Below, in pieces: positions 1,394 to 27,686 of a stretch of DNA of 64,000 nucleotides (position 1 is the stretch's first letter; every line of letters starts with the position of its first letter). The stretch is from Candidatus Aminicenantes bacterium. Lineage in GTDB: Bacteria > Acidobacteriota > Aminicenantia > Aminicenantales > Saccharicenantaceae. The position numbers were made by a program, and so were the translations under genes. The notes under the pieces are model-generated. The model was given only the letters and a program-made list of their open reading frames with translations, did no database searches and was not told where the DNA came from. Location: contig CAWEYF010000012.1 in the NCBI GenBank assembly GCA_963813235.1, positions 4,170-68,169 of the forward strand. Reading direction: 5' to 3'.

Positions 1394-4300
1394 ATGGGCC
1401 CCCCGTCCTGGGACTATCTCGTCGTCACCGCCTCGAACGAGCGGCAGGCGGCCGCATACGACGATCAGCTCGCGCTCAGGATGGGGCTGGGATTCATCTC
1501 CGGCGTCCGGAAGGCCATGGCCGTTCCCGACCCGGGCGGGTCCCGGATCGGGAGCGGCGGGAGCACGGTCTGGTCCCTGCTCAAGGTCCTGGAGCGTGAG
1601 CTCGGGAACGCCGGGGCGCGGGCCCTCGACTCCCGGGCCTGGATCAAGGCGCTCTCGAAGCTCAGGATCCTCATTATCCACGCCGGAGGGGATTCGCGTC
1701 GGCTTCCGGCCTACGGCCCCTGCGGGAAGATCTTCATCCCCGTTCCCGGGGCATCCGACCGGGCCCCGGGCCCGACCATCCTCGACCGGCTCCTTCCCGT
1801 CTATCTCGGCCTGCCGCCGGTCCGGGAGGGCCGCGGCCAGGTCGTCGTGACCACCGGCGACGTGCTCCTGTCCTTCGATCCCGGGGTCGTGCGGTTCGCC
1901 GACGAAGGGATCACGGGCCTGGGTGCGCTCGAACCCCCAGAGCTCGCGGCGAACCATGGGGTCTTCTGTCCGGGCGACGGCGGATTCGTCCGGCGCTTCC
2001 TTCAGAAGCCGTCCCCGGCCGAGCAGGGCGCGAACGGCGCGGTCGGGATCCGCGGCCTCTCCGTTCTCGACATCGGCGTCATGAATCTCGATGCCCGGTC
2101 GGCCGTCGCGCTCATCCGGCTCTTCCGCGTCGGGAGGGCCGCGTCGGGCGGCCTTTCCTGGGAAGGGGAGATGGCGGAGGCGGTCGAGCGCTCGGGGCTC
2201 GATTTCTATCGGGAGATCTGCTGCGCCATGGGCACGGAGGCCTCGTTCGAGGACTATCCAGCCGCCGTCCGGCGGGCGGGCTCGACCCTCGGAACCGGGC
2301 TCCTGAAGCGGATCTTCGGCCGGGTCTCGCGAATCCCCTTCCGCCTGTCGCAGCTTCCCGACTGCGGGTTCCTTCATTTCGGAACCCCGCGCCAGCTCAT
2401 CCGGAGCGGGAAGACCCTCCGAAACGGGCCGAGCGCCGTCTCGAAGGAAGGGGCCCTTCTTGCGATGAACAACGAGGTCTCCGGCGACGGCCGCATCCGG
2501 GGCCGGAATTCCTGGGTCGAAGGGTGCCGCGTCCGGTCGGCCCTCGACCTCGGCGGAGAGAACGCGGTCACCGGGGCCGACATCGTGTCTCCTCTCTCCC
2601 TCCCCCCCAAGGCCGTCCTGGACGTCCTCGAAGGCCGCGACAGGAAGGGGCGAAAGGTCCATTTCGTCCGATGCTATGCCGTGGACGACATCCTCAATAA
2701 GCCCGCGAACACCGGCGCTCTCCTGGCCGGCCTGGCTCCGGGCGAATGGCTCAAGGCCCTCGGGGCGTCGGCAGAAGACGTCTGGGATCGCCGGACGCCT
2801 CGCGATGAGAAGCATGTCTGGAACGGACGTTTTTTCCCCGCGACGAACGGTCCGGAAGGTTTCCTGGACTGGCTATGGATGCTCCGGCCGAAGACCGCGA
2901 CCCCCGAACAGAAAAGGGCGTGGAAGGCCGCGGACCGCTACAGCTTTTCAGAGATGATCGGGCTCGCCTCCCACGACGCCTTTCATTCCCGGCGGCACAG
3001 GAACAGGGCGATGGAGATCGCGGAAACGGCGGGACGCGTCTTCCGGCCGGACAGCGGGCTCTCGGCCTCCGAGCTGTCCTTTGTCCTGGGGAACCTGGGC
3101 CGCGATGAGCGGTCGGTGTGGTTGTCGCGGGTCCTGGGCGACGTTTTCCGTCGCTTTGGGAACGATGGAGCCCTGCCCGGACTGGACCGCCTCGGGCTGG
3201 CGCGAACCCTTCATACCCTCGGCTCCGCCGCCTCGAAGCGAATGGCCGGCGGGGACCGCGGCTGGACACGGACGCTCGCCATCGTTCATGCAAAACTGCC
3301 CGCCGCCCTGAGGGCATGGCTTGCCTGCCTCGGCCTGGGCAAGCGGGAGTTCGGGAGCGCGGCCGCCTGGGCGGAAGCGGCCCGAAACGCGGCGTTCGAG
3401 ACCGTAGGCCGGACCATCGTCCGGAGCCGGGAAAGGCACCCGGAGCATCCCCGGAACGCCCTGCGGAGCGACGAGATCGTATGGGGCCGCGCACCGGTCC
3501 GGCTCGACCTCGGGGGCGGCTGGACGGATACGCCTCCGTATTCCCTCGAGCGGGGGGGCTGTGTCATCAACGCCGCCGTGAACCTCAACGGTCAGCCGCC
3601 CATCCACGTCTACGCCCGAGTGATCCGCGAGCCGGAGATCCGCATCGAGTCCATCGACCACGGGGCCCGCATCGTCGTCCGCGACCTTGCCGGGCTCCTC
3701 GACTACAGGCGGCCGGAGAGCATGTTCGGCCTGGCCAAGGCGGCCCTTGCCCTTTCGGGGTTCTCTCCAGAAGCCGCCGTCTGGCCGAAGGGCGTTCGGA
3801 CCCTCCGGGGCATGCTCGGCCTATTTGGCGGGGGGATCGAGCTGACGACGCTGGCCGCAATCCCGAGCGGCAGCGGCCTGGGAACTTCGAGTATCATGGG
3901 CGCCGCGCTCTTGGCCGTCATCCACAGGATGACCGGCCGCAGGCTGTCGTCCCGGGAACTGTTCCACAACGTCCTCCGCCTCGAGCAGGAGCTGACGACG
4001 GGCGGCGGGTGGCAGGACCAGATCGGCGGAGTCGTCGGAGGGGTCAAGATGATCGAGGCGGAGGCAGGCCTTGTCCCCGACCCGCGCGTCCGGCCCGTTC
4101 CGCCCGACATCCTCGATCCCGCGCGGAACGGGGGTGCGACGCTTCTCTATTATACGGGGATCCGGCGGTTGGCCAAGAACATCCTGCGCACCGTGGTCGG
4201 GAATGTTCTCGACCGAGACCGGGAGGCGATGGCGACCTTGGCCGAGCTCCGTGCGTTCCCGCCGAAGATGGCGGAGGCGATGTCCGCGAAGGACGCGCGG

Positions 4301-13447: not shown

Positions 13448-14791
13448 ATGACCGGCCCGCCGTTGAACATCCTCGTTGTCGATGACGAGGCCAACATCCG
13501 CCGAACCCTGTCCATTTGCCTCGAAACGGAGGGCCACAGGGTCATCAGCGTCGGCAGCCCCCGGGACGCCCTTTCCGAATCCGCCCGCCGGCCCTTCGAG
13601 CTTGCCTTCGTGGACCTGCGGCTCGGGACCGAGGACGGTCTCGATCTTATCCCAGCCCTTCTCGCCGCGGTCCCATGGCTTAAGATCATCGTCATCACCG
13701 CCTATGCGTCCATCGATACCGCCGTGGAGGCCATGCGGCGGGGGGCCAGCGATTACATCCCGAAGCCGTTCACGCCCGCCCAGATCCAGCTGGCGGTCCG
13801 GCGTGTCTTCGAGATGCGGACCCTCGAGCAGAGAGTCGCCGCCCTCCAAGAAGACCTGGGCCGGGGGCACCCCGAGATCGATCTCTCGAGCTCCAGCCTC
13901 CCGATGCGGAAGGCCGTGGACCTTGCTCGGCGCGTGGCCGTCTCCGAGGCCACGGTCCTCCTCCTCGGGGAGAGCGGCACGGGCAAGACCGTCCTGGCCA
14001 GGGCCATTCATGAGTGGAGCCCCCGGGCGTCAAAACCTCTCGGCATCATTTCCTGCCCTTCTTTTCCGGCCGAGCTCCTGGAGAGCGAGCTCTTCGGCCA
14101 CGAGAAGGGGGCGTTCACCGGGGCGGTCCGGGACAACCCCGGCCGCATAGCAGCCTGCGAGGGAGGGACGCTCTTCCTTGATGAAGTCGGCGACCTGCCC
14201 CCGGTCCTCCAACCAAAGCTCCTTCGGTTCCTCCAGGAGAAGGAGTACGAACGCGTCGGGGGCGGAGTGACGCGAAAAGCGGATGTTCGGCTCATCGCCG
14301 CCACGAACCTGGACCTCGAGAAGGCGGTCAGGGACGGGGCGTTCCGCGAGGACCTCTATTACCGGCTCAACGTCTTCCGGATCGAGATCCCTCCCTTGCG
14401 CAGCCGGCCCGACGACATCATGCCGCTCGCGGAAAGGCTCCTGGTCTTTCATGGACGGAACAACCACCGGTCCTTTTCCGGCTTTACGGAAGAGGCCGTC
14501 CGGGTGTTATCCTCCTATCCCTGGCCCGGCAACGTCCGGGAGCTGAGCAACGTCATCGAAAGGGCCGCTATCCTCTCCGGCACCGATCGCATCGGGATCG
14601 AAAACCTTCCCGGGACCATCTCCCCCGAAGATGCGTCTCCCCGCGTCGGGGACCCCATGACCCTTGAGAGAATCGAGGAACAACACATCCGCAGGGTCCT
14701 CGCCGGGTCCGCGTCCCTGCAGGAGGCCGCAAACATCCTCGGCATCGATCAGGCCACCCTCTGGCGGCGACGCAAGAAATACGGGATATAG
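13448..14791 (+). CDS. Sigma54-dependent response regulator (REC + AAA+ + Fis-type HTH; NtrC family)
   Basis: REC domain (ILVVDDE...DLRLG...ITAY...KPF). AAA+ domain with GESGTGKT, GHEKGAFTGA (GAFTGA loop) and FLDEVGDL. C-terminal HTH (AANILGIDQATLWRRRKKYGI). An alternative start lies at 13403. Confidence 0.9.
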   Translation: MTGPPLNILVVDDEANIRRTLSICLETEGHRVISVGSPRDALSESARRPFELAFVDLRLGTEDGLDLIPALLAAVPWLKIIVITAYASIDTAVEAMRRGASDYIPKPFTPAQIQLAVRRVFEMRTLEQRVAALQEDLGRGHPEIDLSSSSLPMRKAVDLARRVAVSEATVLLLGESGTGKTVLARAIHEWSPRASKPLGIISCPSFPAELLESELFGHEKGAFTGAVRDNPGRIAACEGGTLFLDEVGDLPPVLQPKLLRFLQEKEYERVGGGVTRKADVRLIAATNLDLEKAVRDGAFREDLYYRLNVFRIEIPPLRSRPDDIMPLAERLLVFHGRNNHRSFSGFTEEAVRVLSSYPWPGNVRELSNVIERAAILSGTDRIGIENLPGTISPEDASPRVGDPMTLERIEEQHIRRVLAGSASLQEAANILGIDQATLWRRRKKYGI

Positions 14792-14829
14792 AAGGGGAGG
14801 GCCCTTCCCCTCCGCACCCCTGCCGAATT

Positions 14830-15609
14830 CTACGCTAGAGCATCCTTATCGTCTTTCACGCCCAGCTTATTCTCCAGCAGGTTGATGCCCTGCAAAATAA
14901 TAAAGCTCTCGTCGTTCGTTTTGATATCGAGGACAATGTCAGAGTTCTTCAGGAGCGCCTTCATCCTGACCGAGAGATAGGCTATCGAGTTGGAGATGTA
15001 GATCGGGAAGTACCAAAAATAAAAGAACGCCAGGATCAAACAAAACACCCCAATACCGGCCATGAGGTTGATGATCCTGGCCGAATCGTGTTTCGCCATC
15101 TGGCTTTTCCGCTCGACCGCCTGCAGGTTGATGTCGTTGATGTTGTTGATGGCGTTTCTGAGAGTTCCTAGGGCCGGCTGGTATTCGTTAAAGTAAACGG
15201 CGCGACTGCCCTCGCCCTTGACGATCCGAAGGCAGAGGTTTGCGTACAGAACATAACCCTGGTTGACCGTATCCACATATTCCCTTTCATGGATCTCGGT
15301 GATGTTGCCGTTTTCGGACTTGAGGTTGTTTTCGAATTCGGTCCTCCCGGCTTCAAAGAGCTTCAAGTCGTAGTCGGAAGTCCCTTGGTCATCGGCCGGG
15401 TTGAAGACGATGCTGCTGATGGCCGTCCGCATATCTTCGAGGGCTGAGATCATGTTCTTGCAAAAGACGAGGGATTTGTAGTTATCCTTCAGAATGTTCT
15501 CGGCGTCACGCGAAAGCGTGCCGATATAAAGGGAATAGAAGACCATTAAAACAAAGATGATGAGGAACAAGAACCCCAAGCCTAACGTCAGTTTCTTTTT
15601 GAGTGTCAT
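14830..15609 (-). CDS. Stand-alone two-TM four-helix-bundle sensor + HAMP-like protein, no transmitter domain
   Basis: 259-aa ORF in a visibly AT-richer segment. The N-terminus MTLKKKLTLGLGFLFLIIFV...ILKDNYKSLVFCKNMISALEDM aligns with the kinase N-terminus LRQKLSLGFGGMLAILVII...ILRENYRSVIACQQMKEALERI. After a second TM segment (GIGVFCLILAFFYFWYF) there are only about 60 residues. Confidence 0.7.
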   Translation of the reverse strand: MTLKKKLTLGLGFLFLIIFVLMVFYSLYIGTLSRDAENILKDNYKSLVFCKNMISALEDMRTAISSIVFNPADDQGTSDYDLKLFEAGRTEFENNLKSENGNITEIHEREYVDTVNQGYVLYANLCLRIVKGEGSRAVYFNEYQPALGTLRNAINNINDINLQAVERKSQMAKHDSARIINLMAGIGVFCLILAFFYFWYFPIYISNSIAYLSVRMKALLKNSDIVLDIKTNDESFIILQGINLLENKLGVKDDKDALA

Positions 15610-15940
15610 GATGCCTCCAGAGAGGAACCCGTTTCTTTCAAGATAGTATCTTCATTGTAGTCCGATTCGCAGCAAATGGGAATCTTCCGGGGCCTGCTCA
15701 TGGACCTCCTCCGTTCCGTCAAGGCGCAATACATGGTTGTGGCGGAAAAGCCGCCGTCTTCTCAGTCGTGCTGGATAAGGTCGTGCTCTGGCCCGATGAT
15801 AGATACATTGCATGGCGAGAGCCAGGTGGAATGCTTTTCGGGCAACCTTCATCGTCGCAAGAAATACGGCATCTTAAAGCGGTTCGCCGAAGCCCGAGCG
15901 TACCCATATTGCCGAATTCAACGCCATTTACCGGACCGCC

Positions 15941-15953
15941 TTGCATAATGCAA
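15941..15953. promoter_or_regulatory. Palindrome TTGCAT-A-ATGCAA, candidate enhancer (UAS) site
   Basis: A perfect 6+1+6 palindrome 64 bp upstream of the -24 element at 16017. The functional assignment is inference only. Confidence 0.3.
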
Positions 15954-16016
15954 TGACGCCTGGAAGCGGATAGCACGCAACTCAATTAATCGCAATAACA
16001 TGACCGCTGACCGATC

Positions 16017-16033
16017 TGGCACGGCTCGTGCAT
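16017..16033 (+). promoter_or_regulatory. Sigma54 (-24/-12) promoter
   Basis: TGGCACG-GCTC-GTGCAT against the consensus TGGCACG-N4-TTGCW, with one mismatch. The GG and GC dinucleotides have correct spacing. The kinase start codon is at 16052 or 16058. Confidence 0.6.
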
Positions 16034-16051
16034 CCCCTTCAATCAAAGGAA

Positions 16052-17901
16052 ATGAACATGCTCGGACTTCGACAGAAGTTATCCCTCGGTTTCGGCGGGA
16101 TGCTGGCCATCCTCGTCATCATCGGCGTCCAGAGCGTCCGTCACTTTTCGAGCCTGGGCGCGTCCATCGACGTTATCCTCCGGGAGAATTATCGAAGCGT
16201 CATCGCCTGCCAACAGATGAAAGAGGCGCTCGAGCGCATTGACAGCGGGCTCCTCTTCATTCTGTTGGGCGAGAGCGTGAAGGGCGAGGCCCTGGTCGCC
16301 GCGAACGAGACATTTTTCCGGGCGGCGCTCCAAGTCGAGCTGGATACGATCACCCTTCCCGGGGAAGGGGAGAAAGCCGCGCTTATCCGCGATTCCTTCG
16401 GCCGGTTCGAATCGGCCCTCGCCGGCGTCGTGGATCCCGCCCTGTCCGCCGCCGCCCGGAAAAGCGCCTATTTCGACCGCGTGCTTCCCCTGTTCGAGCG
16501 CATCAAGAACGGTGCGGACGAGATCCTGCAGATGAACCAGCAGAACATGAGCGACGCCAACGACCTGGCCCGGCGCAGCGCCGCCGCCGCGCGCAGACAG
16601 ATGTTCGCCCTCCTCTTGGCGGGCACGGTCCTCGCCTCCGCTTTCCTCCTTCTAACGGGGAGGTGGATCCTCCGTCCCATCCAGCGCCTTATCGGGTCCG
16701 CCGAGGAGATCCGGCGGGGGAACCTCGACCTGGTCGTCGCGACCGGCTCCCGGGACGAGATCGGCCGGCTTTCCGAAGCCTTCAATGCGATGGCGGCGAG
16801 CCTGCGCGAATTCCGGCGGACCGACGAGGCCCGACTCATTCGGATCCGACGGGCCACCCAGGAAGCGTTCGACAGCCTCCCTGACGCGGTCGCGGTCATC
16901 GATCCGGAGGGGAAGGTCGAGGTCGCCACGGAATCGGCCAGGACCGTCTTCGGGCTGAAGCCGGGGATTCGAGTCTCCGATTCGCCGTTCGAGGCGTTGG
17001 CCGACCTGTTTCGAACGGCGCTCAAGGAAGGCCGCATCGCCACTCCCGGAAACCGGGGAGAGATCCAGGTGTTCGTTGGCGGAGAGGAGAGGTACTTCCG
17101 TCCGAAAGCCGTGCCCATCCTCGACCGCGAACGCCTTGCCGACGGAGTGGTTCTGTTCCTCAGCGACGTCACCCAGCTCCGCCAGCAGGACGAGATCAAG
17201 AAGGGCGTGATCCGGATGGTGTCGCACCAGCTCAGGACGCCATTGACATCCATCCGCATGGCGATCCATCTTCTCCTCGAGGAAAAGGTCGGCCCCTTGA
17301 CCGAGAAGCAGGCGGAGCTCCTGGTGACCGCCAGGGAGGACAGCGATCGCCTGCACGGCATCCTGAGCGACCTCCTCGATATCAGCCGCATTGAATCCGG
17401 GAACGCCACGCTGGAATTCCGGACGGCTCCCCCCCGGACCGTGGTCTTGGACTCGATCGAGCCCTATCGGAGGGCAGCCCAGGACCAGGGCGTCGAGCTC
17501 GTCCCGGAGCTCAAGGACGACCTTCCCGACGTTTGGGTGGACTTGACCCGGATCGGTCACGTGTTCGGCAACTTGATCTCGAACGCCTTGAAGTACACGC
17601 CCGCCGGGGGCCGGATCGCGGTCGGGGCCGCCGCGGAGGAGGCCTTCGTCCGCTTTTCGGTCTCGGATACGGGAGCGGGGATCCCCGAGGAGTTCCTTTC
17701 GAGGGTCTTCGAACCGTTCTTTCGGGTTCCGGGCCACGGGAAAGAGATCGGAGCACGGGCTCGGATTGGCCATCGTCAAGGAGATCGTGGAGGCCCACGG
17801 CGGAACGGTCGGCGCCGAGAGCCGGTCCGGGGACCGGGTCCACATTCACGTTCACCCTCCGAAGGGCCGACCGGCGACTCGGCGGGGAGATCCGGGCATG
17901 A
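16052..17901 (+). pseudogene. Sensor histidine kinase (4HB sensor, HAMP, PAS, HisKA, HATPase_c), frame interrupted twice near the 3' end
   Basis: TM-flanked sensor, HAMP (RPIQRLIGSAEEIRRGNLD...DEIGRLSEAFNAM), PAS (FDSLPDAVAVIDPEG), H-box (MVSHQLRTPLTSI), N-box (NLISNALKYTP). The G-boxes are only readable after frame switches at about 17750 (HGLGLAIVKEIVEAHGG) and about 17830 (GTGSTFTFTLRRAD). Confidence 0.8.
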
Positions 17902-17981
17902 CCGACCTCCTCTACCTCGTCCTCGCCGGGCTCTTCTTTGCCGCCTGCGGGCTTTACGTCCGGGCATGTAAAAGGCTGTGA
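17898..17981 (+). CDS. 27-codon hydrophobic peptide upstream of kdpF (hypothetical)
   Basis: MTDLLYLVLAGLFFAACGLYVRACKRL. Its ATG overlaps the kinase stop (ATGA), and its stop is 2 nt before kdpF. There is no independent support. Confidence 0.3.
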   Translation: MTDLLYLVLAGLFFAACGLYVRACKRL

Positions 17982-17983
17982 CC

Positions 17984-18067
17984 ATGGCCGACATCCTTGG
18001 GCTCATCATCGGCCTCCTGCTCATCGGCTACCTCTTGATGAGCATCCTCCGGCCCGAAAAATTCTAA
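17984..18067 (+). CDS. kdpF: K+-transporting ATPase subunit F
   Basis: MADILGLIIGLLLIGYLLMSILRPEKF: 27 aa, a single TM segment, with the C-terminal LL.PEKF ending typical of KdpF. It lies immediately upstream of kdpA. Confidence 0.6.
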   Translation: MADILGLIIGLLLIGYLLMSILRPEKF

Positions 18068-18071
18068 TGGC

Positions 18072-19859
18072 GTGATCACGATGGACGTCTTCGGCTGGCT
18101 TCAACTGACGCTCTTTCTGGGGATTCTATTCCTCGTCACGAAACCGGTCGGCCTATATCTTGTTCGGGTCCTGGAGCCCGAAGGGAAAACCTGGCTGGAC
18201 CGGTCCCGTCAAGCCCGTCGAACGCCTGCTTTACCGCGTGCTCGGCATCGATCCGGGGAAGGAGCAGAATTGGAGGGAGTATGCCCGGTCCCTGATCGTC
18301 TTCAGCCTGGTCGGGCTGCTCTTCACCTACGCCGTCCTCCGGCTCCAGCATTTCCTCCCGTTGAATCCGCAGGGATTCGGGCCCGTTCGGCCCGACCTCG
18401 CCTTCAACACGGCGGCCAGCTTCACCACCAACACGAACTGGCAGAATTACGCGGGAGAAACGACGCTGTCCTATTTTTCGCAGATGGTCGGGCTCGTCTT
18501 CCACAATTTCGTCTCGGCGGCCGCCGGCATCGCCGTCGCCGCGGCCCTGGTCCGCGGCATCGCCCGGCATTCGGCCAGGACCATCGGGAACTTCTGGGTC
18601 GACCTCGTCCGGGTCAATCTCTACCTGCTGCTTCCGATCTGCGTCGTCTTCGCCCTCTTCCTGGTCTCCCAGGGCATCATCCAGAACTTCAAGCCCTACG
18701 TCAGGGCGGCGTCCCGTGCGAGAGCGCGCCTCGGCGGCCACCGGACAAGGCCGGGGATCCGCCAGACCATCGCCCAGGGCCCGGTGGCCTCCCAGGTCGC
18801 CATCAAGATGCTGGGGACGAACGGCGGCGGCTTCTTCAACGCCAATGCCGCCCATCCCTACGAGAACCCGACGCCGCTCTCGAACTTCATCCAGATGCTC
18901 TCGATCTTCCTCATCCCGAGCGGCCTCACCTATTACCTCGGGCGCACGGTCAGGAACCAGAAGCACGGCTGGGCGGTGTGGGGCGCCATGGCGATCCTCT
19001 TCCTGGCCGCCGTGCTCGTCTGCTGGCGGGCCGAAAGCGCCGGCAATCCGCGCCTGCACGCCCTCGGGGTGGACCCGGCCGGCAGGCAACATGGAAGGCA
19101 AGGAGGTCCGGTTCGGCATCTTCAATTCCAGCCTGTTCGCCACCGTCACGACCGACGCCTCCTGCGGGGCGGTCAACTCCATGCACGACTCCTTCACGCC
19201 CCTGGGCGGGCTGGTCCCGCTGTTCAACATCCAGCTCGGCGAGGTGGTCTTCGGCGGCGTCGGCGCCGGCCTCTACGGGATGCTCGTCTTCGTGGTCCTG
19301 GCCGTCTTCCTCACCGGCCTGATGGTCGGGCGGACGCCGGAATACCTGGGCAAGAAGATCGAAGCCTACGACGTGAAGGTCTCGCGTCCTGGCGGTCCTG
19401 ATCCTCGATCTTCGCGATCCTCGGGTTCTCGGCCTGGGCCGCCGCCAGCCGGTGGGGCTTGGCCGGCTTGAACAACGCCGGACCCCACGGCTTCAGCGAG
19501 ATCCTCTATGCCTTCTCGTCCGGCGCGGGCAACAACGGCAGCGCCTTCGCCGGCCTGAACGGCAACACGCCCTGGTACAACACCACCCTGGGGCTGGCCA
19601 TGCTCTTCGGCCGATTCTTCATGATCGTGCCCGGTCCTGGCCCTGGCCGGGAGCCTGGCCCAAGAAGAAGCTCGTCCCGTCCGGCGAAGCGAGCTTTCCC
19701 GGCAGCGGCCCGACGTTCACCGTCATCCTCATCGGGACGGTCCTCATCGTCGGCGCGCTGACCTTCCTGCCCGCCCTGGCCCTCGGCCCCATCGTCGAGC
19801 ATTTCCTGATGACCGGGACGGGTCTCTGTATTAAGGGAGGACGAACGATGCCAGCATGA
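18072..19859 (+). pseudogene. kdpA: K+-transporting ATPase subunit A, frame interrupted at least 5 times
   Basis: KdpA segments are readable in alternating frames: [124 protein letters not shown]. Frame switches are near 18205, 19085, 19383, 19408 and 19640. Confidence 0.85.
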
Positions 19860-21873
19860 ACCATCCGCTGTTCGACCGGGCCATCGTCGGCCAGGCGGCG
19901 ATCGACTCCTTCAGGAAGCTCAATCCGGTCTCCCTGCTGAAGAATCCGGTCATCTTCGTCACCGAGGTCGGGGCCGCTGCTGACCACCCTCGGCCTGTTT
20001 CTGGGATCGAAGAACGAGCCGGCGGGCTTCGTCGCTCCAGGTCTCCCTCTGGCTCTGGTTCACGGTGCTCTTCGCCAACTTCGCCGAGGCGATGGCCGAG
20101 GGCCGGGGCAAGGCCCAGGCCGACGCGCTCCGCAAGACCCGGACCCGGACCATGGCCAACGCTCGTCGGGCCGGACGGCTCGATCGCGAACGGTCCCGGC
20201 CGAACGGCTGCGGAAAGGCGACCTCGTCGTCGTCTCCGCCCGCGAGATGATCCCGGCCGACGGCGAGATCGTCGAGGGCGCGGCAACGGTGGACGAATCG
20301 GCCATCACCGGGGAGTCCGCCCCGGTCATCCGCGAAGCGGGCGGCGACCGGAGCGCGGTCACCGGCGGGACGCGCGTCCTCTCCGACCGGATCAAGGTCC
20401 GCGTCACGGCCGACCCCGGCGAAGAGCTTCCTGGACCGGATGATCGGCCTCGTCGAAGGGGCGAAGCGGCAGAAGACGCCGAACGAGATCGCCCTGACCA
20501 TTCTGCTCTCGGCCCTGACGATCATCTTCCTCGTCGTCGTCATCACCCTGAAGCCGTTCGGCCGCTACTCCGGCGTCGACCTGACGATGACCGTGCTCGT
20601 GGCCCTGCTCGTCTGCCTGATCCCGACGACGATCGGCGGCCTGCTGAACGCCATCGGGATCGCCGGGATCGACCGCATGGTCCAGAAGAACGTCCTGGCC
20701 ATGAGCGGCCGGGCGGTCGAGGCGGCCGGGGACGTGGACGTCCTCCTGCTGGACAAGACGGGGACCATCACCCTGGGCGACCGTCAGGCGACGGCGTTCC
20801 TGCCGGCGCCGGGCGTGACGGTCGAGGAGCTGGCCGACGCCGCCCAGCTCGCCTCCCTGGCCGATGAGACGCCCGAGGGGCGGAGCATCGTCGTCCTGGC
20901 CAAGAACTACGGATTGAGGGGGCGCTCCCTCTCGGAGATGCCGGGCGCGACGTTCATCGCCTTTTCCGCGCAGACGCGGATGAGCGGGGTCGATCTCGAC
21001 GGCCGACGCATCCGGAAGGGCGCCCCGGACGCCGTTCAGGCCGTTCATCGGGACCGCCATTCCCGCGGAGGTCCGGGACGCCGTCGAGCGGATCGCGTTC
21101 CGGGCGGGACCCCGCTCGTCGTCGCCGAAGGAACGCGGGTCCTGGGCGTCATCCACCTCAAGGACATCGTCAAGGGCGGGCTCAGCGACCGCTTCGAACG
21201 GTTCCGGGCCATGGGGATCAGGACCGTGATGATCACCGGCGACAATCCGCTCACCGCGGCCGCCATCGCCGGGGAGGCCGGCGTCGACGACTTCGTCGCC
21301 GAGGCGAAGCCGGAGGACAAGCTGGCCCTGATTCGGAAGGAGCAGGCGGCGGGGCATCTCGTGGCCATGACCGGCGACGGGACCAACGATGCCCCGGCCC
21401 TGGCCCAGGCCGACGTCGGGGTCGCCATGAACACCGGGACGCAGGCGGCCAAGGAGGCCGGGAACATGGTCGATCTCGATTCGAATCCGACCAAGCTGAT
21501 CGAGGTCGTCGAGATCGGGAAGCAGATGCTCATCACCCGGGGCGCCCTGACGACCTTCAGCATCGCCAACGACGTGGCCAAGTACTTCGCCATCATCCCG
21601 GCCATGCTGGTCGGCGTCTTCCCCGTCATCGCTCCGCTCAACATCATGGGCCTCGGGTCGCCGGAGAGCGCGATCCTGAGCGCCGTCATCTTCAACGCGC
21701 TCATCATCGTCGCCCTGATCCCGCTGGCGCTCCGGGGGGTGCGCTTCCGCCCCTTGGGCGCGGCCGCGCTCCTCCGGCGCAATCTCCTGGTCTACGGCCT
21801 GGGCGGCCTTATCGCGCCGTTCCCGGGCATCAAGCTCATCGACATCGTTGTCAACGCCTTGCATCTCGTTTAA
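19856..21873 (+). pseudogene. kdpB: K+-transporting P-type ATPase subunit B, frame interrupted at least 7 times
   Basis: Motifs: [73 protein letters not shown]. Frame switches are near 19975, 20035, 20160, 20190 and 20425, plus a compensated pair near 21040 and 21105. The start overlaps the kdpA stop (ATGA). Confidence 0.85.
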
Positions 21874-21892
21874 CATGAGGGAGTGAACGGAA

Positions 21893-22486
21893 ATGAAGCC
21901 CTGGCTCGCGGAATTCCGGAGGTCGCTGATGGCCGTGTCGGCTCTGGCCGTCCTTCTGTGCGGCCTTTACCCCGTGGTCGTCTGGATCCTGGCCCACGGC
22001 CTTTTCCCCGCCCGGGCCGACGGTTCTCTCATCGTACGGGACGGGGAGATCAGGGGATCGAGCCTGATCGCGCAGGGATTCACCGGCCCCGGGTATTTCC
22101 ATCCCCGGCCCTCGGCGGCGGGAAACGGCTAGGACGCCGCCCGGTCCGGCGGGAGCAATCTCGGGCCGTTATCGAAGCGATCTGTTCGAGATCGTCGCCG
22201 ACGCGTCGCCGATTATCGGCCGAGAACGGCCTCCCCGCCGGGACGCTCGTTCCCGCCGACGCCGTGACGGCTTCGGCCAGCGGCCTCGATCCGCATATTT
22301 CGTTGAAGAACGCCCTCCTCCAGGCCCGCCGCGTGGCCAAGGCGCGCGGTCTCGCGGAGACGGACGTCCGCACGCTCGTCGAAGAGCGGACCGAAGGCAC
22401 GGTCCCTGGGCATTCTCGGCGAGCCGCGCGTCAACGTGCTGCCGCTGAATCTGGCCCTGGACGGGGTCCCCGATGGCGGAAGATAG
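21893..22486 (+). pseudogene. kdpC: K+-transporting ATPase subunit C, in-frame TAG plus several frame switches
   Basis: N-terminal TM segment. RSGGSNLGP and [14 protein letters not shown] are KdpC motifs. There is an in-frame TAG at 22130-22132 where Tyr is expected ([15 protein letters not shown]). At least 4 further frame changes lie between 22170 and 22410. Confidence 0.8.
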
Positions 22487-24143
22487 GGCCGATACCTTCC
22501 TCCGGATGATCCGCCGCTCGCGGCACGGGCGGCTGAAGGTCTATCTCGGCTACAGCGCCGGCGTCGGCAAGACCTACCAGATGCTCCAGGAAGGGCACCG
22601 GCTGAAGAGCCGCGGGATCGACGTCGTCATCGGGTCTGCTCGAGACGCACGGCCGGGCCGATATCGCCGATCTCGCCCGCGGGCTGGAAGTGGTCCCCAG
22701 GCGCCGGCAGGAGTACCACGGCATCGCCGTGGAAGAGATGGACGTGGACGCCGTCCTCGCCCGCAAGCCGCAGGTCGCGCTCATCGACGAGCTGGCCCAT
22801 ACCAATGTCCCCGGCAGCCTGAACGCGAAGAGGTACGAGGACGTTCAGGACATCCTGGCGGCGGGGATCCACGTCATCACGACCATGAACGTCCAGCACC
22901 TGGAAAGCCTCTACAACATCGTCGAGGGCTCGGTCGGCGTCAAGGTCCGGGAGCGGCTCCCGGATTCCGTCCTGGCCGAAGCCGACGAGATCGTCGACGT
23001 CGACCTGGCGACCGAGGACCTCCGGAAGCGGCTCGAAGAAGGCAAGATCTACCCCGCCGAGCGCGTCGGAACGGCCCTGGCGAATTTCTTCACCTCCTCG
23101 AACCTGGAAAAGCTCCGCGAGCTGACCCTCCGCGAGCTCGCTGTCGCAGATCGATCTGAGGAGGCGGGAGACCCCGCGAGGACGAGAGCGCCTCCGCGGC
23201 GGAACAGGTCATGGTCTGCCTCAGCTCGCGCGGGCCCGACAGCGAAAGGCTTTTGCGCTACGGCTCGCGGCTGGCGGGAAAGCTCAACCGGAACTGGTAC
23301 GCCGTCTATGTCCAGACGCCGTCCGAGGAGGCCCGGGCCATCGACGCCCGGACCCAGCGGCTCCTCTCGGACACGCTGACCCTGGCCAAGCAGCTCGGCG
23401 CCATGGTGTTCACCTATAAGGGAGAGGATGTCGTCGACACCCTGCTCCGTTTCGCCGGGGAGTACCGCGTGGGGCATATCGTCGTCGGGCGATCGTGCCC
23501 GAAGCCGTTCTGGAAACGCCTGAGCGGGAACAGAACCGTCGTCGGCGATCTTCTGAAAAAGGCCCGCGGCGTCGTCGTGACCGTCCTCGATACCCGGGGA
23601 GAGGCGATCTCCGCGATGCGACCCCCGCAGGGGAGCCCGCGGGAAGAGAGGCGTCCCCCGCAGGCCGGCGGGCCTTCGTTGAGCCGATGGCTGGCCGCCC
23701 GCCGGATCGTCATCTGGGACGAACCCGTCCCGAAGGAGACCGTCCTCCGGACGCTGGCGTCGACCTTCGGAAAGGAGGACGGGATCGGCGACGGGGAAGC
23801 CCTTTACTCGGCTATCCTGAAGCGGGAGGGACAGGGCTCGACATTCTTCAACGAGGGCGTGGCGTTCCCCCATGTCCGCGTCCGGGGCCTGCCCGCCCCG
23901 GCCATCGCCCTGGGGCTGACGAGGGAGGGGGTCCCGGACGTCGTCACCGAGAAACAGATGGAGATCGTTTTTCTCATCCTGTCGCCCGAAGAGGAACCGA
24001 ACACGCAGGTGGAGCTCTTGGCTCTGGCCGGCCGGGCCGCGAGGAACAGGTCCCTGCTCCGAGACCTCGCGTCCTGCGCGACGGGAGAGGATGTCCTCGC
24101 CGCGATCCGGGATTCGGAAGCGGCCCGCGACCCCCGGCTTTGA
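22473..24143 (+). pseudogene. KdpD N-terminal sensor domain + Usp domain fused to a PTS EIIA(Ntr)-type domain; no TM or kinase domain; frame interrupted at least 3 times
   Basis: KdpD-N: LKVYLGYSAGVGKTYQML, LETHGR, IDELAHTN, TTMNVQHLESL. Usp-like: VMVCLSS...NWYAVYVQTP...HIVVG. C-terminus: AILKREGQGSTFFNEGVAFPHVRV...EIVFLILSPEEE...LLALAGRAARN, which aligns to E. coli PtsN (AILTREKMGSTGIGNGIAIPHGKL...DLLFALLVPADQ). Frame switches are near 22640, 23140 and 23170. The frame is intact from 23211 to the stop. Confidence 0.75.
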
Positions 24144-24300
24144 TACGTTCGCGGCGCCAAGCTCGATCTTCAAATCGGGGTAAAAAAGCGCCGCTCAGTA
24201 TCAACCCTGAGCATACCCGGGCTTCAGGCCGTGGGAGTCGAATGGGTTGATTTTTCTGAGTCCCTTATAATGAGGCGCGGCTTCCGGCGAGGAGTGAACG

Positions 24301-25502
24301 ATGTACGGGCGTTTCCAAGAATATCTTCAGGGCGAGCTGGAGCAGGATCAAGGCCGAGGGCCTCTACAAGCTCGAGCGGGTCCTGACGACCTCGCAGGGC
24401 GTCGAGATCCGGACCGAGGACGGGCCGAAGGTCCTCAACTTCTGCGCCAACAACTATTTAGGGCTCTGCAACGAGCCGCGGGTCATGGCCGCCGCCAATT
24501 ACACGTTCTTCCGGCTGGGCTACGGCATGGCATCGGTGCGCTTCATCTGCGGCACCTCCGAGGTCCATAAGGAGCTCGAGCGGAGGATGAGCGAGTTCCT
24601 GGGCACGGACGACACCCTGCTCTATTCCTCGGCCTTCGACGCCAACGGCGGCGTCTTCGAGCCTCTGCTCGGCGAGGACTCGGCCATCATCTCGGACGAG
24701 CTCAACCACGCCTCCATCATCGACGGCGTCCGCCTCTGCCGGGCCCGCCGCTACGTCTACAAGAACAACGACATGGCCGACCTCGAGGCGAAGCTCAAGG
24801 ACGCCGCGGACGCCCGGTTCCGGCTCATCGTCACCGACGGCGTCTTCTCGATGGACGGCATCATCGCCCAGGTGGACAAGATCTGCGAGCTGGCCCGCCG
24901 CTACGACGCCCTGGTCATGGTGGACGACTCGCACGCCACGGGCTTCATCGGAAAGACGGGGCGGGGGACCCATGAGCATTGCGGCGTCATGGGCGATGTG
25001 GACATCATCGTCACGACCTTCGGCAAGGCCCTCGGCGGGGCCTCCGGCGGCTGTATCTCCGGGCGGAAGGAGATCGTCGAGTTCCTGCGGCAGAGGTCGC
25101 GGCCGTACCTGTTCTCCAATTCGCTGACGCCCGGCATCGCCGGGGCCACGATCGAGGTCCTGAAGATCCTCGGGGAATCGACGGAGCTCAAGGACCGGCT
25201 CGAACGGAACACGGCCCGCTTCCGGAAGGGGATCGAGGCCGCCGGGTTCCGCATCGTCCCGGGCATCCATCCCATCGTCCCCATCCTCCTCGGCCACCTG
25301 CCGAACGACGCCAAGCTCTCCCAGGACTTCGCCGAACGCCCTCCTCGAGGAGGGCATCTACGTCATCGGCTTCTATTTCCCGGTCGTCCCGCGCGGCAAG
25401 TCCCGCATCCGGGTCCAGATCAGCGCCGCCCACACCCCCGAGCAGATCGACTTCGCCGTCGAGAAATTCGCCAAGGTCGGAAGAGCCCTCGGCGCGATCT
25501 GA
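24301..25502 (+). pseudogene. kbl: Glycine C-acetyltransferase-type alpha-oxoamine synthase (Kbl-like), frame interrupted twice
   Basis: Motifs: [72 protein letters not shown]. Frame switches are near 24345 and 25335. The corrected C-terminus is [30 protein letters not shown]. Confidence 0.8.
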
Positions 25503-25553: not shown

Positions 25554-25958
25554 ATGATCTTTGGCATCGGCACCGACATCATCGAGGTCGGCCGGGTCGA
25601 ACAGAAGCTCGCCCGGACGGAGGGGCTCAAGAAGAAGCTCTTCACGGGAACCGAGACCGCTTACTGCGAATCCAAGCACCGCCCCGCCCTTCACTACGCC
25701 GCCCGGTTTGCCGCAAAAGAGGCGTTCCTCAAGGCCATGGGGACCGGCTGGAGCGGCGGGCACCGGTTCGACGAGATCGAGATCGTCAACGACCCCCTGG
25801 GAAAGCCCGAGCTCTTTGTCCACGGCAAGGTCCGCGAGTTCTGCGGGACCCGGGGCGTCACCCGCATGTCGGTTTCACTGTCCCACGTCAAGGAAATAGC
25901 GGCGGCCTTCGTCGTCCTTGAAACGGCGCCCGAAAAAATCAGCGGTTCCCGCGAATGA
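25554..25958 (+). CDS. acpS: Holo-[acyl-carrier-protein] synthase (4'-phosphopantetheinyl transferase)
   Basis: MIFGIGTDIIEV...AARFAAKEAFLKA...SLSH are AcpS motifs. The track start at 25545 lies inside the -10 hexamer, so the ATG at 25554 is preferred. Confidence 0.85.
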   Translation: MIFGIGTDIIEVGRVEQKLARTEGLKKKLFTGTETAYCESKHRPALHYAARFAAKEAFLKAMGTGWSGGHRFDEIEIVNDPLGKPELFVHGKVREFCGTRGVTRMSVSLSHVKEIAAAFVVLETAPEKISGSRE

Positions 25959-25980
25959 TCCGCCACGGGAGGAGAAGCGC

Positions 25981-27686
25981 ATGTCCAACATCGGCTCGTT
26001 AGACGACCGGGTGAAAGGCTCCACCTGGGCCGTCTCGGCCGAAGAGCTCGGCTACAAGGACGGCGACGTCATCAATATCGGCTGGTATTGCTCCGACAGG
26101 ATTTGCGCGACAGGGGAAGGCCGGCAAGCTCGCCCTCATTTGGGAAGGGCACTACCGGCGTCGAGAAACGCTTCACGTATAACGACGTCCGTCTGGCCTC
26201 GAACACCGTCGGCGCCTTCCTCCGCGGCCTGGGCATCAAGCCCGGAGAGCGGGTTTGCCTGTTCATGGACAAGGTTCCCGAGCTCTACCTCGGGTTCCTC
26301 GGCGTCCTGAAGATCGGGGCCATCGCCCAGCCGCTGTTCTCGGCCTTCGGCGACGAGTCCCTGTTCGTCCGCCTGTCGGACGCCGGGACCTCGGCGGTCA
26401 TCACCCAGAAGAAGCACGCCCCGAAGGTCCGGAAGATCCTCGACCGCCTGCCCCACATCCGGCACATCATCGTCGTGGACCACGACGGCATCGCGCCCCT
26501 CAAGGACCGCGAGGTTGCCTTCTCCCTCGAGAAGGCCGCGCCCGTCGAGCACCTCGAAATCCACCCGACCACGGCCGAGTCGCCTTCGGTCATCCACTAC
26601 ACTTCGGGGACGACGGGGATGCCCAAGGGCGTCAAGCACGTCCATTCCTCCCTCATCGCCCAGTACATCACGGCGAAGTGGGCCCTCGATCTCCGTGACG
26701 ACGACATCTACTGGTGCACGGCCGACCCGGGCTGGGTCACCGGGACTTCCTACGGCATCATCGCCCCCTTCGCCCTGGGCGTCACCCAGTGCGTCATGGA
26801 CGCCGGGTTCTCGGCCGAGGCCTGGTACCGGTTCGTCGAAAAGCGCCGGGTGACCATGTGGTATTCCGCCCCGACGGCCATCCGCTCCCTGATGAAGGCC
26901 GGCGACGAGCTCGTGAAGAAGTTCGACCTGTCCTCGCTCCGCCACCTGGCCAGCGTCGGCGAGCCCCTGAACTCCGAAGCCGTCGTCTGGTCCCAGAAGG
27001 TCTTCGGCAAGCCCTTCTACGACACCTACTGGCAGACCGAAACGGGCTGCATCGTGATCGGCAATTACCCCGGCATGGAGGTCAGGCCCGGCTCTATGGG
27101 GAAGCCGTTCCCCGGCATCACGGGCACCATCCTCGACCCGGTTCGGAACGAGCCCTATCCCGTTCACGGGAAGATCGGCCTCGTCGCCCTGAAGTTCGAC
27201 TGGCCGTCGCGGATGCGGACCTACTGGAACAACGAGGAGGCCTTCGCCAGGAAATTCCGTAACGGCTGGTATATCACGGGCGACCGGGCCCGGATCGACA
27301 AGGACGGCTACTACTGGTTCGCCGGGCGCGACGACGACATCATCAACACGGCCGGCCATCTGGTCAGCCCGTTCGAGGTCGAGTCGGCCCTGCTCGAGCA
27401 CCCGGCGGTCGCCGAGTCGGCCGTCGTCAGCAAGCCGGACCCCATCAACCTCGAGGTCGTCAAGGCCTTCGTGGCCCTGAAGCCGGGATTCGCGGCGGGC
27501 AAGGACCTGGACCTCGACATCATGAACTTCGTCCGGAAGAAGCTCTCGCCGCTGGCCATGCCCCAGGAGATCGAGTTCGTCGACAGCCTGCCCAAGACGC
27601 GGAGCGGGAAGATCATGCGCCGCATCCTCCACGCCCGCGAGTGGGGCGAGGAGATCGGCGACACCTCGACGCTCGAGAACGATTGA
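25981..27686 (+). pseudogene. AMP-forming acyl-CoA/acyl-carrier synthetase (acetyl-CoA synthetase-like), frame interrupted twice near the 5' end
   Basis: GGGAGGAG RBS before the ATG at 25981. Motifs: YTSGTTGMPKG, YWCTADPGWVTG, GYYWFAGRDDDIIN, PKTRSGKIMRR. The N-terminus reads ...DRICATGEG | AGKLALIWEG | TTGVEKRFTYND, with frame switches near 26118 and 26148. Confidence 0.8.

Follow-up and report, generated by a model that had tools for sequence, protein, structure and literature searches.

A kdp operon of Candidatus Aminicenantes very probably transcribed from a sigma-54 promoter under an NtrC-type two-component system, read from a frameshift-ridden metagenome assembly

In bacteria without KdpE, control of the kdp genes is patchily known, a cyclic di-AMP (c-di-AMP) riboswitch serving this purpose in some Firmicutes. 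Here we describe a kdp locus of Candidatus Aminicenantes contained in a stretch of 64,000 nucleotides (assembly GCA_963813235.1, contig CAWEYF010000012.1, forward-strand positions 4,170 to 68,169). This stretch is called the window below, and all coordinates refer to it unless another locus is named. The locus very probably holds a functional kdp operon that depends on sigma-54 and is governed by an NtrC-type two-component system, in an assembly that is ridden with frameshifts. An earlier note on this DNA had proposed that a sigma-54 promoter and an NtrC-type pair drive a kinase-kdpFABC-kdpD' operon, and this proposal is well supported by comparative evidence and by a precedent in Desulfovibrio vulgaris.

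The D. vulgaris precedent comes from a mapping of all its response regulators by DNA affinity purification and microarray analysis (DAP-chip; Rajeev et al., 2011, PMC3333781). DVU3334, a sigma-54 response regulator with a GAFTGA motif, binds upstream of kdpF according to both DAP-chip and electrophoretic mobility shift assay (EMSA). The published table of that study places the DVU3334 site CGTTACATTTTGTAACGG at -149 of kdpF in D. vulgaris Hildenborough; in D. vulgaris Miyazaki a related one precedes DvMF_2578, the gene for KdpF. For Syntrophobacter fumaroxidans it lists the site CGTTTCATTTTGAAATGT at -173 of the multi-sensor kinase gene Sfum_2621, the regulator being Sfum_2622, which is 46% identical to DVU3334. 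The KdpD of D. vulgaris is split into a protein made of the KdpD N-terminal domain and a universal stress protein (Usp) domain, and a separate histidine kinase. Its kdp promoter is targeted by three regulators, with DVU3305 and DVU3334 binding at overlapping positions (PMC3333781). DVU3334 is likewise listed as a GAFTGA two-component regulator in a later sigma-54 regulon study, where DVU3339.1-DVU3337 forms the regulon "Potassium uptake" (Kazakov et al., 2015, PMC4641369). The view that no such regulatory architecture had been described, as put forward in the earlier note, is therefore wrong. The literature searched for other sigma-54 kdp systems gave only the D. vulgaris work, and a 2025 comparison of sigma-54 regulons does not mention kdp (PMC12316311).

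For KdpD itself, the N-terminal domain has been shown to act as an atypical serine kinase (Walker A G-x5-GKT, Walker B D-E): it modifies S162 of KdpB, within TGES, and this phosphorylation inhibits the pump (Silberberg et al., 2024, PMC11018627). According to the same study, KdpD proteins devoid of histidine-kinase domains occur for the most part where KdpE is missing, and a Deinococcus KdpD/Usp protein is stimulated by c-di-AMP.

In the window, the regulator gene, the operon genes and the promoter and enhancer elements all lie on the forward strand. The predicted sigma-54 -24/-12 promoter TGGCACGGCTCGTGCAT (TGGCACG-GCTC-GTGCAT) occupies positions 16017-16033. Its GG (16018-19) and GC (16030-31) are spaced as GG-N10-GC, and it differs from TGGCAC-N5-TTGC(W) by one mismatch, a G for T at -14/-15. 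The element ends 24 nt before ATG 16058, most likely the translation start of the kinase gene, as homologues open with MLGLRQK and an AGGA (16046-49) lies 8 nt upstream of this ATG. Transcription is predicted to start near 16042.

A scan of species-representative genomes returned 365 loci that encode a relative of this kinase, of which 80 were retrieved together with 10 kb on either side. The closest relatives carry the label Candidatus Aminicenantes; other record titles among the 80 are Thermodesulfobacteriota, Syntrophorhabdus aromaticivorans UI, Desulfomonile tiedjei, Syntrophaceae, Candidatus Deferrimicrobium, Krumholzibacteriaceae and Candidatus Hydrogenedentota. A clean, unframeshifted orthologous locus (L001) served as reference. 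A survey of synteny, which the earlier note had proposed as a check, found the complete order regulator, kinase, kdpA, kdpB, kdpC, kdpD' in 48 of the 80 loci, while 14 more are consistent with it but are cut by contig ends. In 62 of 78 related loci a -24/-12 element (score of at least 17.9 of 20.4) is located 15-60 nt before the kinase start, the distance being 22-29 nt in most of these. The same scoring gave 71 other matches in 2.78 Mb (both strands), which amounts to 0.0012 per 46-nt interval. It is this conservation in position that makes the promoter significant, and not the count in a single window: allowing one mismatch, TGGCAC-N5-TTGC matches twice in the 64 kb, with 2.04 matches expected. 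Three loci in which the kinase does not adjoin kdpABC (L026, L028 and L077) have a separate strong sigma-54 element upstream of kdpA.

Upstream of the promoter, two enhancer sites (upstream activating sequences) are conserved in the same manner. Alignment of the upstream regions on the promoter TGG, with sites counted at up to two mismatches in 67 loci, gave a 13-bp palindrome, consensus TTGCA-N3-TGCAA, at two places whose centres lie about 71 and 103 bp before the GG. At least one site is present in 65 of the 67 loci and both are present in 55, compared to a background of 0.34 sites per kb. The dominant spacing between the two is 32 bp, or about three helical turns. The proximal site of the window, TTGCATAATGCAA (15941-15953), is a perfect palindrome whose centre is 71 bp upstream of the -24 GG, with the 5-3-5 layout of the EMSA-validated DVU3334 and DVU3305 sites. 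The distal site, TTGCCGAATTCAA (15909-15921), has its centre 103 bp upstream and is conserved in position. Both the promoter, set at about 20 nt before the kinase, and the proximal palindrome, set at 64 bp upstream of the promoter, had been recognized in the earlier note and are confirmed; the distal palindrome had been overlooked.

Between enhancers and promoter, many orthologues carry a sequence resembling the binding site of integration host factor (IHF), WATCAA-N4-TTR. In 9 of 67 loci, compared to an expected 0.002, the consensus is exact and begins 26-28 nt before the TGG, and near matches are many. In the window (ATCGCAATAACAT, 15990-16002) and in its closest relatives L001-L003 this position is degenerate. 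As predicted from these motifs, the enhancer pair, the IHF-like site and the -24/-12 element form the textbook layout of an NtrC-class promoter.

The candidate activator is encoded at 13448-14791, outside and upstream of the sigma-54 unit. Pfam assigns to its coding part (13448-14788) the domains Response_reg (PF00072), Sigma54_activat (PF00158; 2.9e-64), AAA_lid_14 (PF25601) and HTH_8 (PF02954), the GAFTGA motif is encoded at 14108, and the protein is 91% identical to its L001 orthologue. It reaches none of the NCBIfam equivalog cutoffs (AtoC 393 bits vs 714, NtrC 362 vs 559), and its domains mark it as a predicted bacterial enhancer-binding protein of the NtrC family but not as a named NCBIfam orthologue. 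Neither a second REC or AAA+ domain nor a second activator, a second histidine kinase or an HPr was detected in the 64-kb window by motif scans of the six-frame translations and by tblastn with REC, AAA+ and histidine-kinase catalytic queries, and no KdpE-like regulator was found in the same 64 kb. The protein had previously been read as REC, AAA+ and Fis-type HTH and as the only response regulator nearby. Both statements hold, the former now with a positive Sigma54_activat profile.

One could accept the promoter and still assign the TTGCA-N3-TGCAA sites to another protein, for instance a regulator like DVU3305, which is described as a "general stress" regulator. The DVU3305 sites GTTGCGATATGCAAC and GCTGCATAATGCAAC do match the half-sites of the window better than the DVU3334 site GTTACATTTTGTAAC, and the kdp promoter of D. 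vulgaris is, as mentioned, a target of three regulators. We nevertheless consider a different activator very unlikely. The gene of the NtrC-type regulator lies directly upstream of the enhancer sites in about 65 of the 80 loci, across phyla, and co-varies with the sites; it encodes the sole sigma-54 activator of the window; and the DVU3334 orthologue of S. fumaroxidans has been assigned a site upstream of a kinase gene in a comparable layout.

The unit that would be transcribed from this promoter begins with the gene of a sensor histidine kinase (16058-17901). According to Pfam, the kinase consists of a transmembrane segment, a periplasmic region resembling a four-helix bundle (4HB; weak match to 4HB_MCP_1), a second transmembrane segment, HAMP, PAS, HisKA and HATPase_c. 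Its family counts more than 3000 database proteins at E <1e-20, most of them 613 amino acids long, and it reaches no NCBIfam equivalog cutoff. The databases currently label it "KinB". The kinase gene is followed by kdpF (17984-18067; Potass_KdpF, 3.2e-09), kdpA (18072-19859; 3' end uncertain, tblastn pieces 81-93% identical to the L001 KdpA), kdpB (19848-21873; a P-type ATPase with the TGES serine) and kdpC (21893-22486; recognized by its match to the L001 orthologue). Compared piece by piece with L001, KdpA and KdpB of the window mostly show about 80% identity, and KdpC shows 56%; the L001 orthologues themselves are clear Pfam members (KdpA 1.9e-235, E1-E2_ATPase for KdpB, KdpC 9.7e-62). KdpF, KdpA, KdpB and KdpC are found in one cluster, which is what identifies a predicted KdpFABC P-type ATPase.

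Between the kinase gene and kdpF lies a small open reading frame, here called orfX (17898-17981), for a hydrophobic peptide of 27 amino acids, MTDLLYLVLAGLFFAACGLYVRACKRL. Its counterparts occupy the same place in at least 46 of the 80 loci (e.g., L004 8028-8111 and L065 11845-11928) and share the consensus M-I/T-D-L-...-FFGLC.LY.RACERL, which ends in a CERL-like motif. The peptide belongs to no Pfam or NCBIfam family and no description of it appears in the literature searched. A role as an additional Kdp subunit or as a regulator is possible.

The junctions downstream of the promoter had all been described as tight, and most of them are. The stop codon of the kinase gene overlaps the ATG of orfX (ATGA, 17898-17901), and gaps of 2, 4 and 19 nt precede kdpF, the GTG of kdpA (18072) and the ATG of kdpC (21893), respectively. 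Measured from the stop codon of the kinase gene, the small hydrophobic open reading frame that follows begins at a median of -4 nt across 64 loci; this 4-nt overlap as the norm argues for translational coupling and co-transcription. The claimed kdpA/kdpB overlap (ATGA, 19856-19859) is doubtful. Of the two candidate starts of kdpB, ATG 19848 and ATG 19856, the former (MPA...), preceded by AAGGGAGGA, matches the VPAS... start of the orthologue and is followed by an apparent indel, and L001 has a gap of 12 nt between kdpA and kdpB. The start is thus probably ATG 19848 and the ATGA overlap probably an indel artefact. An overlap of 14 nt between kdpC (presumed end 22486) and kdpD', also listed in the earlier note, is plausible: on the kdpD' side the reading frame does start at ATG 22473, and L001 shows the same kind of overlap. 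In the window, kdpC itself is frameshifted.

These junctions bear on a further possibility, in which the sigma-54 promoter autoregulates the kinase gene only and kdpFABC is served by an internal promoter of its own or by a KdpDE pair encoded elsewhere. Four loci (L025, L033, L051 and L075) have 300-470 nt between kinase and kdpA, which leaves room for a promoter. The window has no such intergenic space, given its ATGA overlap and its gaps of 2 and 4 nt, and the 4-nt overlap is the norm in the 64 loci. A sequence scan found no sigma-70-like site between 16,000 and 18,100; inside the operon as a whole, sigma-70-like sites and terminators occur at the level of shuffled sequence, none of them strong and none between kinase and kdpF. 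In addition, KdpD without histidine-kinase domains is mostly found in species without KdpE (PMC11018627), and the sigma-54 promoter of D. vulgaris sits directly before kdpF. We consider a restriction of the promoter to the kinase gene very unlikely as well. Riboswitch control was rejected as well: a search of 12-26 kb for riboswitches and other Rfam families at E up to 1 gave only a sub-threshold match to the P10 small RNA inside kdpB.

The last gene of the proposed operon, kdpD' (22473-24143), encodes a KdpD N-terminal domain (PF02702), a Usp-like region and a PTS_EIIA_2 domain of the phosphotransferase system (PTS), and no histidine-kinase domains. Walker A (G-x5-GKT, as GYSAGVGKT) and Walker B (DE, as IDELAH) are present in the open reading frames starting at 22473 and 22690, and the KdpB of the window carries ITGESAPV with the TGES serine. 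The window therewith contains the predicted sequence features of the KdpD atypical serine kinase together with those of its target. By analogy, KdpD' most likely is a serine kinase that inhibits the pump post-translationally and does not signal to a regulator. The statement of the earlier note that the NtrC-type pair stands "instead of KdpD/KdpE" is thus half right: a KdpE-like regulator is missing from the 64 kb, but KdpD is not absent, its N-terminal domain being retained.

The EIIA part of KdpD' spans about 23700-24125, with its histidine motif (GVAFPH) at 23856. The PTS_EIIA_2 domain is also C-terminal in the intact orthologues of L001 and L065, and the G(V/A)AFPH motif with the expected phospho-histidine is kept in 61 of 63 loci. 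Compared to the NCBIfam model KdpD_non_kinase (NF038185, 373 amino acids), the L001 KdpD' of 560 amino acids scores 350.1 bits (cutoff 550), with its residues 11-373 aligned. Such KdpD-EIIA fusions are abundant in databases under the labels "PTS sugar transporter subunit IIA" or "sensor histidine kinase KdpD", both of which are misleading. The fusion is mentioned neither in Silberberg et al. (2024) nor in the other literature searched. It is a plausible lead since PtsN acts on KdpD in E. coli and rhizobia (e.g., PMC9239096).

Several reading frames of the window are broken, which the earlier note had read through without comment. Comparison by tblastn with intact orthologues located two frameshifts in the kinase gene (near 17700-17830), at least four in kdpA, at least two in kdpB and three in kdpD', and kdpC is out of frame over part of its length. 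Unrelated genes in the flanks are frameshifted too: an aminotransferase-family gene (about 24283-25499) twice and an AMP-binding gene (about 25954-27683) once, and upstream a dehydrogenase-like open reading frame is split (12530/12678). Operon and neighbours together contain at least 14 frameshifts. Between 12500 and 27700 they recur about every 700-1000 bp, in every gene examined except that of the regulator. The pattern is typical of an unpolished long-read assembly, and many of the related records are long-read-style contigs of metagenome-assembled genomes.

A decaying pseudogene cluster, with real frameshifts and merely relic regulatory elements, could account for the at least 11 frameshifts in kinase, kdpA, kdpB and kdpD', for the partly out-of-frame kdpC, and for a public protein record of the kinase (P0001) that has the same read-through of 637 amino acids, compared to 613 in relatives. 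However, the frameshift density is similar in the aminotransferase and AMP-binding genes and in the dehydrogenase-like pair, the stretches between the shifts mostly share 80-97% of their amino acids with intact orthologues and no in-frame stop was noticed in them, and the related records are often of the long-read style just mentioned. Because the flanking genes are hit equally, pseudogenisation was rejected and we conclude that the frameshifts are assembly indel errors, not gene decay, the latter being highly improbable. Finally, that the -24/-12 match and the palindromes are chance features, as the null count in the single window might suggest, has practically no probability left, being refuted by their conserved positions across related loci (62 of 78 and 55 of 67, where the background is about 0.001 per interval for the former and 0.34 per kb for the latter).

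The regulator gene and the enhancers of the window are separated by a low-GC insertion (14792-15905; GC 50%, compared to 65% for the window) that is not present in L001-L003, where about 190 bp lie between the stop of the regulator gene and the start of the kinase gene. A repeat, TGCCGAATTC(N)ACGC, flanks it at 14822 and 15910 and is part of the distal enhancer site. On the reverse strand the insertion encodes a protein of 259 amino acids (14830-15609) with two transmembrane segments, a 4HB-like paralogue of the sensor region of the kinase (23% identical to kinase residues 1-249, E 5e-14) without an output domain. L075 has a similar protein at the same place (3333-4090). In two other Aminicenantes loci, L019 (8086-9456) and L034 (3239-4709), a BBP2-family beta-barrel porin gene is inserted between regulator and kinase, with a duplicate of the sigma-54 promoter, TGGCACCC(C/A)TCTTGCTA, in front of it. 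This arrangement suggests an outer-membrane channel that is co-regulated with Kdp.

Some points weigh against a functional sigma-54-dependent operon as proposed here. The -12 element reads GTGC instead of TTGC, the IHF position of the window itself is degenerate, and the TTGCA half-site is no less similar to the motif of DVU3305 than to that of DVU3334. A scan of the six-frame translations for the RpoN box found no rpoN in the 64-kb window. The 1.1-kb foreign insertion between regulator gene and enhancer could affect expression of the regulator, and the frameshifts, if real, would mean a dead operon. Potassium as the signal and the roles of KdpD' as serine kinase and of its EIIA domain are inferred from homology only.

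For an NtrC-controlled kdp operon of this composition we propose the following course of events. Upon potassium limitation, the membrane kinase with its periplasmic 4HB-like sensor, HAMP and PAS would phosphorylate the regulator, which would then assemble on both enhancers, spaced by three helical turns. By DNA looping, assisted in most relatives by the IHF-like site that is degenerate in the window, the regulator would contact the sigma-54 polymerase and open the promoter at the expense of ATP. The resulting single mRNA would encode the kinase (giving positive autoregulation), the 27-residue orfX peptide, the KdpFABC pump and KdpD'. Once potassium is sufficient, KdpD' may phosphorylate the TGES motif of KdpB and shut the pump, in analogy to the KdpD N-terminal domains of E. 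coli and Deinococcus, and the EIIA(Ntr)-like domain fused to it may in turn modulate its activity.

More tentatively, and with the balance leaning against it, the locus may represent a widespread and largely undescribed KdpE-independent module of at least 365 species-representative genomes, which would combine stereotyped sigma-54 control, the KdpD-EIIA fusion and orfX as a pump subunit or regulator. If this is true, the fusion would hard-wire the link between PtsN and KdpD that has been described in E. coli and rhizobia. The findings overturn no current understanding. They indicate that sigma-54/NtrC control of kdp is not peculiar to Desulfovibrio and is a conserved module across several phyla, the well-defined promoter layout could serve the annotation of kdp loci, and the fusion of KdpD N-terminal domain and EIIA gives an experimental entry point to the question of how signals of the PTS(Ntr) are passed to the Kdp pump.

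Compared to the canonical KdpD/KdpE system of E. coli, the locus has the same KdpF, KdpA, KdpB and KdpC, a KdpD N-terminal domain with the motifs G-x5-GKT and DE, and regulatory genes linked to the pump. The KdpD domain of the window is, however, not fused to transmembrane, GAF and DHp-CA parts, an OmpR-type KdpE is missing from the 64 kb, and a sigma-54 -24/-12 promoter with distant enhancers takes the place of the sigma-70 promoter with KdpE box. KdpD' is closer to the short KdpD/Usp non-kinase proteins, such as DgKdpD of Deinococcus geothermalis and cyanobacterial KdpD (NF038185; PMC11018627). These equally combine KdpD and Usp-like parts without a histidine kinase, are encoded after kdpC, also occur in organisms apparently without KdpE and likely act by serine phosphorylation of KdpB. 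They differ from the window protein by its C-terminal PTS_EIIA_2 domain with conserved histidine and by its score well under their family cutoff. The promoter region is reminiscent of NtrC/NtrB control of glnAp2, with tandem palindromes about 70-105 bp upstream of -24, an IHF-like site in most relatives and a REC-AAA+-HTH_8 activator, whereas the target here is a potassium-pump operon and the kinase a membrane 4HB-HAMP-PAS protein.

The strongest parallels are with the DVU3334 system and with Sfum_2622/Sfum_2621, as judged by layout and published sites. Like the window, the DVU3334 system links a GAFTGA NtrC-type regulator to kdpFABC through a 5-3-5 palindromic enhancer about 100-170 bp upstream of the operon, has a KdpD-N/Usp protein without kinase next to a separate PAS histidine kinase, and has no adjacent KdpE. 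In S. fumaroxidans the site precedes a kinase gene that neighbours the regulator gene, a layout comparable to that of the window. The gene order of D. vulgaris is different, with the promoter before kdpF and kinase and regulator last, whereas in the window the kinase comes first and the regulator lies outside and upstream. The half-site is TTGCA in the window compared to TTACA in D. vulgaris and TTTCA in S. fumaroxidans, and the window further differs from the DVU3334 system by its two sites 32 bp apart, the extra EIIA on KdpD' and the presence of orfX. The system of the window matches a known kind of kdp control, found here in a new lineage and with a variant gene order and enhancer sequence.

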